Of a stretch of 64,000 nt of DNA, positions 26,895 to 33,665 are shown in pieces (positions within the stretch are counted from its first letter, which is position 1; every line of letters begins with the position of its first letter). Location of the stretch: NCBI GenBank assembly GCA_963706595.1, contig OY970166.1:2624001-2688000 (forward strand), written 5' to 3'. The stretch comes from an uncultured cyanobacterium (GTDB lineage: Bacteria; Cyanobacteriota; Cyanobacteriia; Cyanobacteriales; Nostocaceae). The notes under the pieces were generated by a model. It saw only the letters and a program-made list of their open reading frames with translations. It did no database searches and was not told the DNA's origin. A program made the translations under genes and the position numbers.

Positions 26895-27449
26895 TCATTC
26901 AAATACAGGTGGCCATAATTCAGAAACAGCAACTTCCCAAGCAGGAAATAACTCATTAATAGATAACTTATCTTCACCTGTTAAAACTTCAACATCACCA
27001 TTAGGACGATATACACTCACAGATAATTCATCAGGATTAATTAATATTCCTACTCTTGCACCTAACTCTAAAAATAACTTAACTTTATCTTCTAACTTAG
27101 AAACTCTATCGGTTTTCGATTTTATTTCTACAACCAAATCAGGTACTAACTGACCAAAATCTCTCACCGTGCGTTTTAGTCTTGACGCAGCTACAAAAGA
27201 AACATCAGGAGCGCGTAAATCAGTATTTGGCATAATAAACCCACCACTTGAGTCAAATATCCGCCCAAGTTTACGAGGTTTTATCCAATTACCTAATAAC
27301 CTGATTAATTCAGCCCCGATTTCACTAGATTCAATATCTGATGGACCCATAACTAGAATGTTTCCTTCTTGCAGTTCTATTTGGTAGTCCTGCTCATCCT
27401 CTTGTAGCTTTTGTTGTAGTCTGTCTACATCTTCAATAGTGAAAGTCAT
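26895..27449 (-). CDS. Uma2 family endonuclease
   Basis: DSSGGF, RAPDVSFV and PDLVVEIKS motifs. Confidence 0.88.
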   Translation of the reverse strand: MTFTIEDVDRLQQKLQEDEQDYQIELQEGNILVMGPSDIESSEIGAELIRLLGNWIKPRKLGRIFDSSGGFIMPNTDLRAPDVSFVAASRLKRTVRDFGQLVPDLVVEIKSKTDRVSKLEDKVKLFLELGARVGILINPDELSVSVYRPNGDVEVLTGEDKLSINELFPAWEVAVSELWPPVFE

Positions 27450-27505
27450 AGAACTTCTCAGATATAGTTCATCATACAGTCATCTTATCACTCTTCCTTT
27501 GTATG

Positions 27506-27539
27506 TAGTTGCGCTTTAGCGCTAAAACGCAACTACAAA
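27506..27539. repeat. REP-like perfect hairpin; possible desD terminator
   Basis: tgtagttgcg-ctttagcgctaaaa-cgcaactaca. Confidence 0.6.
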
Positions 27540-27563
27540 CTATGATGATTTATTCATGCGGAC

Positions 27564-28655
27564 TTACTCTGGAGTTGCTGCGCTTCCCATGAGTTTTAGC
27601 CAGCGATAATTAGAAGCTAATGCTTCAGTAAAAGTTTCACAAACATTGTATTTCACGTCAAAATCTTCGCAGACATCAGCTAATATTTTAGCTATTTGAG
27701 GATAATGAACGTGGCAAATATTAGGGAATAAATGATGCACAACTTGATAATTAAGACCACCTAGATACCAATTTAAAAACTGATTTTTGGGAGCAAAATC
27801 TACAGTGGTTTTGATTTGAAAAATTGCCCATTCATCATTAATTTGCTGCAAATCTGAATTGGGTTCAATAAACTCGGCTGCTTCCAAAACATGAGCCAGC
27901 ATGAAAATCACACAAATCATTAAGCCATAGGTCATGTAAGTAATCACAAATCCCAAAACAGCCTGAATAGGTGAATATCCGACAGCAATTGGTATTCCCA
28001 AGAAAAGTCCCAGCCACATCAACTTTCCACTGTAGAAAACCAACAGGTCTAGTGGTTTAAGTGTGGGAATATCATAGGTATGATATTTCCGCTTAATCGT
28101 CACTAAATAAACATCAGCAAAAGACCAATACAAGGGAATGATGGGATATATAAACCAAATGAATAGGTGTTGAAATGAATGATACCATTTATGTTCCATA
28201 TAAGGAGTCATCCGCACTAATCCATCACCATGTATTTCGACATCATGTCCTAATATATTGGTGTATTTGTGGTGCAAGAAATTATGTCTAAATTTCCACA
28301 AAAAACTAGATAAACCAATGATATCAAAGGTGTAACCAAAGATATTATTGACTATTTTGTGACGAGAATAACCACCATGATTTGCATCATGTCCCACACT
28401 AAAACCAATACCAGCAATACCAAATCCTAAAGCAATACAGCCAATTACTTTTAGCCATATTTCAGGCGGACCGAAGAGCGTAAAAGTCCAAGTAGCGATG
28501 ACCCATGACAAAATCATTGTTGTCTTAATGTACATCGCGGGATTATCTCTAGTAGAAATATCCTGCGACTCAAAATAAGCATCAACTCGCTTATTTAATT
28601 CCTTTCTAAAACCGTAGTTTTTAGTAAAAGTTACTTTTGGTTGTGTTTGTGTCAT
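27564..28655 (-). CDS. desD: Delta-6 acyl-lipid desaturase; alternative in-frame start at 28709
   Basis: HDANH, HNFLHH and QVVHHLFP boxes; GFRKELNKRVDAYF and TNILGHDVEIHGDG segments characteristic of cyanobacterial DesD. Confidence 0.85.
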   Translation of the reverse strand: MTQTQPKVTFTKNYGFRKELNKRVDAYFESQDISTRDNPAMYIKTTMILSWVIATWTFTLFGPPEIWLKVIGCIALGFGIAGIGFSVGHDANHGGYSRHKIVNNIFGYTFDIIGLSSFLWKFRHNFLHHKYTNILGHDVEIHGDGLVRMTPYMEHKWYHSFQHLFIWFIYPIIPLYWSFADVYLVTIKRKYHTYDIPTLKPLDLLVFYSGKLMWLGLFLGIPIAVGYSPIQAVLGFVITYMTYGLMICVIFMLAHVLEAAEFIEPNSDLQQINDEWAIFQIKTTVDFAPKNQFLNWYLGGLNYQVVHHLFPNICHVHYPQIAKILADVCEDFDVKYNVCETFTEALASNYRWLKLMGSAATPE

Positions 28656-28901
28656 GTATTTGATTGCACTGGATTCATTTGTGGGATAAAAATCGGGCTT
28701 TTGTCGCATATCTCTAGAGATAAACTCTATTACTAAAAATCTCAGTAAATAAAAAACTACCAGAATTAATCTTTACAGAAGAATAGACATTAATCAACAC
28801 CTAAACTATTCAATTAAGAAACTTTTCTTAATTCTCCTTACTCACTCTTCTGTGCGCCTGGTGCGACTCTGCTTGTTAGCGTCAGCGAGGCGTAGCCCGA
28901 T

Positions 28902-28926
28902 AAAAAAAGTCCGCGCCTGCGGACTT
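28902..28926 (-). terminator. Intrinsic terminator after desB
   Basis: AAGTCCGC-4 nt-GCGGACTT stem followed by a T-run on the minus strand. Confidence 0.7.
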
Positions 28927-28954
28927 CCTGTATATAGCGAAGAATCATCCTCGC

Positions 28955-30025
28955 CTACTTCTGGTGATTAGATGTATAGTAAACTTTACTACCTGTATCC
29001 GGGACAAAATGACAGCTAATAGCTGAACGCCATACCGATTTCCAAATAGGTTCCTCAGACTTGCGGAAATATTCACCCATAATCGGTTTAATCGCCTCAG
29101 TCGCCTTCAGCAAATTGTAGTGAGGCATATTCAGGAAGATATGGTGAGCAACATGAGTACCGATATCATGATGGATATGATTGATAAAACCGTAGTCCCG
29201 ATCAATACTAGAAATTGCACCTTTGAGGAAAGTCCAATCTTCTCCACGATACCAAGGAATATCTTGCTCTGTATGATGTAAAAATGTCACCAAATCTAAC
29301 CAAATCACAAACACAATGTAAGGCATAGCGTAGTATTTTAGTAACCACATCCAACCCCACTGAAAGGTAAAGAAGCCTAGTAAAGCTACCATACCAATCC
29401 AAAGTGCAGTACTAGTCAAGACATCCCATTTTTCGGAAGGCTTAAAAAGTGGGCTACTAGGTGAAAAGTGGGAACCTTTCTTCCCCGGAGAACGCTGAAA
29501 TAAATACACCGGATAAGCCAAAAGAAAGACATAATATCGTCCTATCTTTTGCACCAAGTCCATTTCCTTATACTGCGATTCTGACACAGGATACCAACTT
29601 TCATCATTATCGAGATGTCCAGTATTTTTGTGATGGGTTCTGTGGCTAATTCTCCACCCGTGATAAGGAACCAATATCGGCGTGTGAGATAAATGTCCAA
29701 TCAAATCATTCAGCCATTTGTGCTTAGAAAAAGATTGGTGTCCGCAGTCATGTCCAACGACAAATAAAGCCCAAAACATTGTTCCTTGCATGACCCAGAA
29801 AACCGGCCAAAAATACCAAGAATCTAGGTAATTAGCCACTGCATAAAGCAGTCCAATAATCAAGATGTCACGGAAGAAATAAAATAGGGATTTTGTCACA
29901 CTTGGCTGAAAGCATTCAGCAGGTATTGCTGCTTTCAAATCCTGAAGAGTAAAGGGAAGTTTACTTATTTCTTCAGACGGTTCACAGTCATCAGGATTAT
30001 TAAAAGCGATGGTATTTGATTGCAC
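28955..30025 (-). CDS. desB: Omega-3 (delta-15) acyl-lipid desaturase
   Basis: [37 protein letters not shown] motifs. Confidence 0.92.
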   Translation of the reverse strand: MQSNTIAFNNPDDCEPSEEISKLPFTLQDLKAAIPAECFQPSVTKSLFYFFRDILIIGLLYAVANYLDSWYFWPVFWVMQGTMFWALFVVGHDCGHQSFSKHKWLNDLIGHLSHTPILVPYHGWRISHRTHHKNTGHLDNDESWYPVSESQYKEMDLVQKIGRYYVFLLAYPVYLFQRSPGKKGSHFSPSSPLFKPSEKWDVLTSTALWIGMVALLGFFTFQWGWMWLLKYYAMPYIVFVIWLDLVTFLHHTEQDIPWYRGEDWTFLKGAISSIDRDYGFINHIHHDIGTHVAHHIFLNMPHYNLLKATEAIKPIMGEYFRKSEEPIWKSVWRSAISCHFVPDTGSKVYYTSNHQK

Positions 30026-30235
30026 TTGATTCTTTGGTGGGATATAAATCGGATTTTTTTGACATATCTCTAGTATTAGCCTTGACTAATACTCAAGCAG
30101 ATAATCTCTGGTAATTCACCTCAGAATTTAAGTAGATCAAGAATTACCAGAATCTATTTAATTTACAGGATACTAAATACTATTGCAACAACAAGGCTGC
30201 AATTTGCTTGATAGGTAAACTACTGGCAATACTAT

Positions 30236-31288
30236 TTATTTTCCTGCGTAATATTCGTCGAAAGTCTCATAGCCAATATCAGTTTTGTATAGTTGACATT
30301 GGTCTGTGATTTGCTTCATTAAAGACCAAGAGAACTCACATTCATCATGGAGATAAGGCTGCCAATTTTCTTTGATGCTGCTGTAAGCTAGCCGCAAATT
30401 ATAGGAAGGAATGGCAGTTGAAATATGATGAGGAACGTGGACATTGATATCGTGGCAGAAAATTTCAACCCAACGAGGATAATCACAATGAATAGTACCA
30501 GATAATTGTGCTAAAGCCTCGTTCCACTTGCTTGCTGTGTTAAAAGGAACATCTGATGCAGTGTGGTGAACGATGGTGAAGGTACTCATCCAAAAATGGT
30601 ATACCATCCAGGGTAAGAGCCAAAACTTGACAAATCCCCAAATACCTGTTGTGGCAATTAGGATCGGGAATGCGATCGCAGCAAATATAACTACTACAGC
30701 TACAGAAAGCTTAACACTGGATTGGTCTTTAGGTTTGAAGTTCCGCGCATCAAAATGCACCAACGCCCAATGTCCAATGGAACCTACCCACCACAGACGC
30801 TTACGCATGAAGCCTTCAAAGGCAAACTGCCTCAAGGGTGTCCAATTGGCAAATACGTGTGTTCTAATGGGATGCCAAGCATTATCCTCATCCAATTTGT
30901 TGGTATGAGCGTGGTGATAATTATGCTTAATCCGCCAACTGTGGAAGGGATAAATTAAGGGAGCCATAAATATGTGTCCCACTAAATCATTTACCCAACG
31001 ACGTTTGGCAAAAGACCTGTGACCACAATCATGGCCAACTACGAAAAAACCTGTTAAAGCAGTGCCTGTAAAAATCCAAGCTACAGGTAAGAGAAACCAC
31101 GGACTGATAGCTAGAAAACAGTAGCCCAAGCCGACCATCAAGACACTGAGTAGTGCTTGTGTCCAAGCTTTGCGACTGTTTTTTTCAAAACATTCTCGTG
31201 GCAAAGTCTTGATAATATCTTTGAGCTTGAAGTTGGGTTCGCCAAGGTCTTCACCTAGTTTCTGGCTGTTGATTATTGATGTAGTCAT
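30236..31288 (-). CDS. desA: Delta-12 acyl-lipid desaturase
   Basis: [36 protein letters not shown] motifs. Confidence 0.92.
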
Positions 31289-31371
31289 GAACACCTGGAA
31301 AACATTATGCTGTACTGCCTAGTCACCAAAAAAGTGGCTAGGCGCAAAGTTTCTTAACATTAGCGTCTCAG

Positions 31372-31380
31372 ATTATAACA
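31372..31380 (-). promoter_or_regulatory. Extended -10 promoter for desA
   Basis: Minus strand TGT-TATAAT about 85 nt upstream of the ATG. Confidence 0.5.
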
Positions 31381-31528
31381 ACCCCAGCGACACAAGCGCA
31401 CTATTAAATAGCTGTAGTTGATAATTTTTCGAGGTGATGAATGGTTATTAGTTGCTCGTAGAAATTACTTTTTAGCCAATAGTGAATAAATTCTGTAACT
31501 TATCCACTATTAACCAATAACCTGGAAA

Positions 31529-32347
31529 TTACTGCTTTTTAGCTGCCAACTTGACATTAGTAGCCAGACCAAATACTTGCAGCAATTGAATTGTCATCCA
31601 AGTTAAATCAATTTCCCACCATTCCAGCCCGTGACGAGCTGAGTATTGAAAAGCATGGTGATTATTATGCCAGCCTTCGCCGAATACTAGCACAGCGACC
31701 CACCAGCAATTTGTGGAGCGATCGCCTGCATCATAGCTGCGATAACCAAATTTATGCGTAGCGCTGTTCACCAACCAGGTGCAGTGGTAGACCCACACAA
31801 TGCGAACAAATATTCCCCAAACCACAAAAGACCAGCCACCCAGATACATGAGTAATAAACCCAGTGCTACCTGAACCAAAATGAAATATTTCTGTAAAAA
31901 CTGATAAACTGGGTCTTCGGCAAGATCCTTGGTAAAACGAGGAACATCAGCGTGAGCGGGAGAGTGATAAATTAACCAACCCATATGACTCCACCAGAAG
32001 CCTTTATTGGAATCGTGGGGATCTGGGTCAGTATCAGAATGTACGTGATGAATGCGATGTGTCCCGATCCACTCAATTGGTCCACCTTGACAGGCCAAAG
32101 TCCCGCAAAAGACTAAGAAATATTCCAGCCATTTGGGAGTTTGAAAACTGCGGTGAGTTACCAGACGGTGAAATCCCAGGGTAATCCCCAGTCCACCGGT
32201 GATCCAGTAAAGCAATAAAGCTACACCAACGGCATTCCAGCTAAAGTTACCGGGAAGAAAAGCGAACAAAGCGCCGATGTGCAGGGCTAGGAAAAACAGG
32301 GTATTTACCCAGTTAATTTGAAGTTTCGTTGAAGTAGCAATTGTCAT
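31529..32347 (-). CDS. desC: Delta-9 acyl-lipid desaturase
   Basis: GFHRLVTHRSF, HRIHH and GEGWHNNHH boxes. Confidence 0.92.
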   Translation of the reverse strand: MTIATSTKLQINWVNTLFFLALHIGALFAFLPGNFSWNAVGVALLLYWITGGLGITLGFHRLVTHRSFQTPKWLEYFLVFCGTLACQGGPIEWIGTHRIHHVHSDTDPDPHDSNKGFWWSHMGWLIYHSPAHADVPRFTKDLAEDPVYQFLQKYFILVQVALGLLLMYLGGWSFVVWGIFVRIVWVYHCTWLVNSATHKFGYRSYDAGDRSTNCWWVAVLVFGEGWHNNHHAFQYSARHGLEWWEIDLTWMTIQLLQVFGLATNVKLAAKKQ

Positions 32348-32431
32348 GCAATAACCCGATTGAAATTGTCTAACCTAATCTGCGGGGTTTGAAAATCCGC
32401 ATATCTATAATTTTTTCTAAAAGAGGAACTA

Positions 32432-33665
32432 ATGAACAGCTTAGAACAGCTGCGGCAAGCAGAACAGGCACTAATAGAGATTTTTTCTGGAATTGATGCT
32501 CAGGTCAAGCATAATCTCAAACGTGTCCTAGATGCCTTTCGTAATCACCGTGTAGGCGCACACCATTTTGCTGGTGTTAGTGGCTATGGTCACGATGATT
32601 TAGGACGAGAAACTTTAGATAAAGTTTTTGCCGAAGTTATGGGCGCTGAAGCTGCGGCCGTGCGGGTGCAGTTCGTTTCTGGAACTCATGCGATCGCTTG
32701 CGGCTTATTTGGTGTTCTCCGTCCTGGAGATGAAATGTTAGCAGTGGTCGGTTCTCCCTACGATACGCTCGAAGAAGTCATTGGTTTACGGGGTAAAGGC
32801 CAAGGCTCCCTTATTGAGTTTGGCATAAATTACCGCCAATTGGAGCTAACCCCCCAAGGAACTATAGATTGGGAAACTTTAAGTCATAGTGTGGCTGACC
32901 ATACGCGTTTAGTATTAATTCAACGCTCTTGTGGTTATTCCTGGCGACCGAGTTTATCAATAGCCGATATCGAAAAAATCGTTCATTTAGTTAAACAGCA
33001 AAATCCCAACACCGTCTGTTTTGTCGATAACTGTTACGGCGAATTCATTGAAACCAGAGAACCTACAGATGTGGGTGTGGATTTAATGGCGGGGTCATTA
33101 ATTAAAAATCCTGGGGGAACGATTGTCACAGCTGGCGGTTATGTTGCTGGTCGGGCTGACTTAGTAGAAGCAGCAGCTTGTCGTTTAACTGCGCCGGGGA
33201 TTGGTAGTTATGGTGGGGCGACCTTTGACCAAAATCGGTTGTTATTCCAAGGGTTATTTTTAGCTCCCCAGATGGTCGGGGAGGCGATGAAAGGGACTCA
33301 CTTAACTGGTTATGTGTTTGATAAATTGGGTTATCCCGTAAATCCCGCACCCCTTGCGCCTCGTGGGGATGTGATTCAGGCGATTAAATTAGGTTCTGCT
33401 GCCAAGTTAATTGCTTTCTGTAAGGCGATTCAGCAGCATTCACCTGTGGGTTCTTATCTCGAACCTATTCCCGATGAAATACCGGGGTATGAGAGCCAGG
33501 TGGTGATGGCTGGGGGGACGTTTATTGAGGGGAGTACTTTGGAGTTTTCGGCGGATCGGACCTTTAAGAGAGCCTTATGTGGTTTATTGTCAGGGGGGGA
33601 CTCATTGGACTCATGTGGCGATCGCATTAGAAGCGGCGATGGATGCTGTGGGTTTTAAGAGTTAA
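32432..33665 (+). CDS. Methionine gamma-lyase / aluminium-resistance family PLP protein, with a +1 frameshift near 33557
   Basis: GYGHDDLGR, FVSGTHA, DNCYGEF, GSLIKNPGG motifs; removing one C at ~33557 restores SADGPLREPYVVYCQGG...FKS* ending at 33665. Confidence 0.85.

Follow-up and report, generated by a model that had tools for sequence, protein, structure and literature searches.

The desD gene of this genome is preceded by a copy of the upstream region of its neighbour desB, and this copy is likely to be desD's own promoter and ribosome entry site, located downstream of the desB terminator. That desD had captured the desB leader was proposed in an earlier note on this DNA. We find that one duplication accounts for the capture, and that the copied segment is under nucleotide-level constraint in all nine desD-bearing members of the genus.

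The window, i.e. the whole stretch of 64,000 nucleotides that was analysed, contains the genes in the minus-strand order desC-desA-desB-desD, and named relatives place the cluster in or next to Nodularia. The genes, and the hairpins following desA and desB, are the following.

27564-28655, minus strand: desD, delta-6-type acyl-lipid desaturase (Pfam FA_desaturase; cluster names)
28902-28926, minus strand: intrinsic-terminator-like hairpin after desB (fold and recurrence)
28955-30025, minus strand: desB, omega-3 desaturase, GTG start (Pfam; cluster names)
30182-30203, minus strand: terminator-like hairpin after desA
30236-31288, minus strand: desA
31529-32347, minus strand: desC

We take 30236-31288 to be desA, a delta-12 desaturase gene, and 31529-32347 to be desC, a delta-9 desaturase gene, in both cases from gene order and homology. 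The start codon of desB is GTG in 30 of 30 homologues. For desD the start is likely ATG 28655, as judged from the MTQTQ N-terminus, which is present in 9 of the 10 DesD database proteins fetched and also in the outgroups. This corrects an annotation, as the 381-residue DesD call made for the genome probably has 18 residues too many. An in-frame desB-desD fusion, hinted at by database entries of 368 residues, was considered and rejected; the extra residues in these entries are C-terminal. All four desaturases are known from Nodularia, according to the accessible parts of PMC2593844 and PMC4390868. Elsewhere in the window, the plus-strand ORF at 32432-33660 changes frame near 33555-33570 and has its expected-looking C-terminus in another frame, which is either a frameshift or an assembly error.

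The core of the copy is the segment 28656-28717, which matches 30012-30073 at 53 of 62 nt without gaps, as the earlier note had it. It is the one second copy of the 62-nt segment in the 5.57-Mb genome (E 4.6e-13), and local alignment of the desB and desD upstream regions gives a score of 119, compared to a maximum of 47 in 500 shuffles. The patchier similarity that had been described beyond the 62 nt is likewise found, with a gapped extension reaching the shared CTGTAAA..TTCTGGTA element. In the least eroded relatives, the copy is about 180 nt long and runs from a -10-like hexamer before CTGTAAA, through the hairpin, to desB codon 5, the first 14 nt of desB included. The reason that only 62 nt are conspicuous in this genome is that about 25 nt of the copy have been lost near 28718. 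A short repeat-like element, variable among relatives and with two weaker copies elsewhere in the genome, lies between the terminator and the copy at 28845-28898. The parts of the two leaders that are discussed below are these.

28652-28678, minus strand: mini-ORF from ATG 28678 or GTG 28669, holding the copied desB codons 1-5; intact in 6 of 9
28656-28696, minus strand: copied desB translation-initiation region, the most deeply retained part of the copy
28656-28709, minus strand: frame from the upstream ATG into DesD, not conserved (open in frame in 3 of 9; pN/pS 1.1)
28726-28764, minus strand: decayed copy of the desB leader hairpin (model R1, 16.5 bits; folds)
28774-28785, minus strand: predicted -10 box (28785-28780) and predicted transcription start near 28774
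30000-30065, minus strand: ORF upstream of desB and out of frame with it, not conserved as a peptide (6 of 11 genus members have it intact)
30107-30151, minus strand: conserved 11-bp hairpin in the desB leader (covariation)
30164-30175, minus strand: predicted desB -10 box (30175-30170) and predicted start near 30164

Of 251 genomes of the family, 83 have a DesD match at a threshold of E <= 1e-60, among them 8 of the 10 other genus members, and desB is present in 218. The copy stands ahead of desD in all nine desD-bearing genus members. In the sister genome G033 its last 33 nt only are retained, with 25 of 33 positions identical to this genome, as compared to 10-14 of 33 for three outgroups. 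The nine desD copies form one clade (support 100/99) in a leader tree of 24 rows, built without the mis-cut rows G074 and G011 and without the short copy of G033; one duplication event thus explains all nine. The DesD proteins of Nodularia and G033 also form one clade (100/99), and the desD leaders of the outgroups are unrelated to the desB leader. On this evidence the captured leader appears as the derived state, an older desD leader having been replaced. Gene conversion between the copies was considered as well but is not needed, as the copies sort by position in the tree.

At 17 other loci with both desB and desD, leader-versus-leader scores of 16-41 lie at or near the shuffled maxima of 29-44, in a local-alignment test that is insensitive to short remnants since it missed the eroded copies in G033 and L064. 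An order-wide DNA search returned a second leader copy in this genome only, among 301, and a metagenome scan added no Nodularia loci. In these comparisons the copy is confined to Nodularia and one sister genome. Adjacency of desB and desD is common in Nostocaceae. There are other gene orders as well (L084, L085, L087, L046; L078, L082, L083, L086), namely desA-desD-desB and one in which desD faces the remaining cluster genes, and four genomes (G171, G186, G191, G198) have two adjacent desD-like genes in tandem. Independent loss of desB was seen in four desD-bearing Nostocaceae (L011, L015, L067, L074), and in three of these four the desB hairpin is still upstream of desD; in L074 and L015, independent internal deletions of desB left the leader and the first codons.

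The arrangement most likely arose, and would work, in the following way. A duplicate of the desB 5' region would have formed, and a deletion would have brought desB codon 5 up against the desD ATG, at the expense of the older desD leader. Local duplication and import of an internally deleted desB allele from a relative cannot be told apart. Transcription would start near 28774, past the desB terminator, giving desD a separate transcript, and translation would proceed from an initiation region that is unstructured and has no Shine-Dalgarno sequence. With a probable promoter and a leader of the desB type captured in this way, desD may therefore follow desB-like regulation.

The constraint on the copy was assessed by counting parsimony steps on a fixed tree of nine genomes, with base-matched 4-fold sites as the control. 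For segments that were picked after inspection of the alignment, with indels unscored and with related, hence non-independent, genomes, the desD copy has 14 steps versus 32.6 expected from the -10-like box to the hairpin arm, 15 versus 33.1 in the initiation region, and 6 versus 17.3 in the copied desB codons, whereas the middle has 62 versus 70.1 and a stretch of 19 nt that adjoins the -10-like box on its upstream side has 20 versus 22.3. These counts show, at the nucleotide level, two constrained modules, one made up of the -10-like box and the hairpin arm and the other of the last ca 40 nt, with a freely changing middle. Within the latter module, 28656-28696 has an anti-Shine-Dalgarno energy of 0 and a local MFE of -0.6 to -1.9.

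The proposed promoter lies in the first of these modules. A TAnnnT hexamer is found at the homologous place in 8 of 9 desD copies, with T1, A2 and T6 kept and positions 3 and 5 varying. Retention of T1, A2 and T6 is the pattern expected of a -10 box. In the promoter segment, copy and original are identical at 24-27 of 31-32 nt in eight of nine genomes. Against a promoter at this place, G173 has no hexamer and G033 lacks the whole promoter part, and desD is intact in both. On the desB side, a hexamer with A2 and T6 precedes the hairpin in just 26 of 42 leaders, so the promoter reading cannot be extended to the family as a whole; in several of them it overlaps a terminator T run. Neither candidate promoter is among the 10 sites reported by a sigma-70 consensus scan, for which 13.7 were expected. 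Two other possibilities for the shared element were considered and rejected. For an RpaB/HLR1 reading of CTGTAAA, judged by eye, no second half-site was seen. For a multi-copy regulon motif, model R1, with which 150 of 5957 candidates were scored, yielded no further strong site in the genome, the runner-up having 26.8 bits, and the hits of pattern scans were scattered.

We now turn to the transcripts. Assembled, unstranded contigs from eight RNA runs of six studies were mapped to the close relative G156. The desD contigs listed begin at -134, -131, -131, -128, -114, -107, -73 and -61 (8 of 8 runs), and none of them begins upstream of the start predicted for G156 at -148. It is important to note that the contig gap between the repeat and -134 is no evidence alone, as further records in X17 may cover it. 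These contigs give a weak hint that desD RNA in G156 begins within the copied segment, past the desB terminator. Contigs bridge the desA-desB spacer in 3 of 4 runs, those matching G156 closely. In the accessible part of the supplement of PMC10287535, desC-desA-desB of PCC 7120 form one RNA-seq unit, TU00996, for which the table gives no internal start. The same supplement has an antisense unit, TU00997, which extends over desB and has its end about 50 nt upstream of the desB start. The accessible parts of the supplements of PMC3610870, PMC10287535, PMC3141674 and PMC4734099 contain no start site for these genes, and a search of 12 of the 17 supplement files of PMC5853447 gave nothing either. 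In one low-count series, available in part from the supplement of PMC3141674, desB rises far more than desA.

As had been noted earlier, a terminator separates desB from desD: the hairpin and T run at 28902-28926 fold as a terminator-like stem. The stem recurs in all nine desD-bearing genus members and in G033, G188, G226 and G029. It is not listed by a consensus scan, probably because G-T pairing absorbs the T run. This stem bears on another reading of the copied element, namely as an RNA-processing or stabilising site, an A/U-rich stretch before the hairpin, at which desD mRNA would be cut from read-through transcripts. Such a site would agree with the hairpin being far more widely kept than the hexamer and with the single desC-desA-desB unit of PCC 7120, and the contig starts fit a start at -148 and a cut near -141 alike. 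However, a terminator-like hairpin with a T run lies ahead of the copy in nine of nine genomes, and in the desD copies the hexamer and CTGTAAA are better preserved than the hairpin, a weak one in this genome. We consider the processing site unlikely.

The hairpin deserves attention also in its own right. The majority of the desB leaders compared have an 11-bp stem with a variable loop, and the arm pattern is matched in 42 of 50. In an alignment (A1) of the 37 distinct sequences among these 42, 93% of the cells are paired; one pair is C-G in 22 rows and U-A in 15 with zero mismatches, although, the rows being pattern-selected by their arms and related, this compensatory change may represent one or two events. 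Another pair tolerates G-U in four rows. The covariation score was reached by 0 of 500 shuffles, and slid controls were far lower. No Rfam match was obtained for the hairpin, the region 27000-33000 giving one chance hit below the gathering score. Present in ca 40 Nostocaceae genomes, it is a candidate cis-regulatory or stabilising RNA element. The desD-side copies score 40.7, 37.7, 35.8 and 20.5 bits with model R1 in four relatives, and 16.5 bits here; by this model, the desD-side hairpin is partly kept and partly decayed. In Synechocystis and Trichormus, desB is reported to be induced by cold in the accessible parts of PMC4390868 and PMC4933973. A more far-reaching scenario is that the desB hairpin is a hitherto undescribed, temperature-responsive cis-regulatory RNA of Nostocaceae, and that Nodularia set a copy of it, along with promoter and coupling mini-ORF, before desD, giving co-switching in the cold. 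We regard this as rather doubtful. If it were true, delta-6 and omega-3 desaturation, and with them stearidonic acid synthesis, would switch together in the cold.

A captured promoter could also be combined with translational coupling of desD, by way of the mini-ORF that starts at ATG 28678 or GTG 28669. The earlier note had described the GTG 28669 mini-ORF, with a stop overlapping the desD ATG, correctly; an additional ATG at 28678 lengthens it to eight codons. In favor of coupling, the mini-ORF is intact in six of nine genomes and in G033, with the same 14-nt spacing, the desD-specific ATG at -23 is present in the six genomes with an intact mini-ORF and absent in the three that broke it, and desD has no Shine-Dalgarno sequence. 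On the other hand, the mini-ORF is broken in G218, G173 and G134, i.e. in three of nine genomes, and desD is intact in all three. Furthermore, the ATGA start is present in all 13 desD genes compared, so the TGA comes free and the frame of the mini-ORF is a 1-in-3 chance, and the changes observed in the mini-ORF are missense or nonsense, none silent. The mini-ORF is dispensable, and we judge coupling to be improbable.

That the repeat is a neutral duplication scar is very unlikely: the middle does change at the neutral rate, with deletions, and large parts are lost in G033 and G173, but the two ends change less than half as fast as 4-fold sites, and the copy has stayed nearer its source than have 4-fold sites, whose identity over an equal depth is 64-66% (this genome versus G033).

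We have also considered the two upstream ORFs, which had been thought to be one short leader ORF kept by both copies. Their translations are confirmed, with 13 of 18 residues identical, and the frame from ATG 28709 does run into DesD. The exact two-copy arrangement, however, is found in this genome only, one of nine. Among the genus members, 6 of 11 have the desB-side ORF intact, as do 3 of 19 other genomes (9 of 30 in all); its losses include ATG-TGA, ACG, ATC and deletion. The desD-side ATG is present in six of nine genus members, in frame in three, stopped early in two and frameshifted in one. Counted over 13 codons in those 22 of the 43 rows that have no gaps, 9 alleles are synonymous and 41 non-synonymous, corresponding to a pN/pS of 1.11 (expected synonymous share 0.197, p 0.67), and the peptide has no Pfam match. 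In the desB control, by comparison, synonymous alleles exceed non-synonymous ones in 23 of 24 equal-sized windows. With ORFs lost, stopped or frameshifted in most relatives, no conserved start or frame, and no coding constraint, we reject the peptide; the upstream ATG frames are by-products of the leader copy. A functional leader peptide or N-terminal extension of 18-21 codons common to desB and desD is hardly credible and already largely refuted by the lack of a synonymous excess and the four different outcomes among the desD copies, even though G029 and G088 share an identical peptide, from which that of G033 differs little, an ATG in some frame occurs in six of nine desD copies, and the sequence near the desD-side ATG is slow to change (13 versus 26.1 steps).

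Finally, the locus can be compared with known systems. Like the leader peptides and coupled upstream ORFs of bacteria, it has short ORFs that overlap or abut the start codon, one of them by ATGA; unlike there, start, frame and coding signature are not conserved. A literature search found no paper on a desB-leader duplication or a desB leader hairpin. The genes are those of the known cyanobacterial desC-desA-desB(-desD) cluster, as described in the accessible parts of PMC2593844 and PMC4390868, which do not mention a duplicated leader; what differs from the cluster elsewhere is that the desD leader resembles the desB leader, in Nodularia and G033 only. For desB of PCC 7120, a FurA box has been predicted in silico upstream of the gene (PMC4005646, accessible part), and this 19-mer contains CTGTAAA too, which we read here as part of the start-site region.

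Judged from sequence comparison, the leader capture is real, of single origin and selectively kept, and its type of mechanism is already known. It would represent a clean natural regulatory rewiring, by copying of a neighbour's control region, that can be dated to one node, and it bears on the control of polyunsaturated lipid synthesis in a bloom-forming brackish genus. Since each module is already deleted in some natural variant, the list of parts of the desB leader is testable. Duplication or deletion leading to promoter capture is described for citT of E. coli and his of Salmonella in the accessible part of PMC11111574, and the likeness is that a rearrangement sets the upstream control region of another gene directly before a coding sequence. 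In contrast to those cases, the desD one is natural, fixed and genus-wide, with a candidate promoter; the recipient was probably expressed already, and it took over the whole leader plus five codons.
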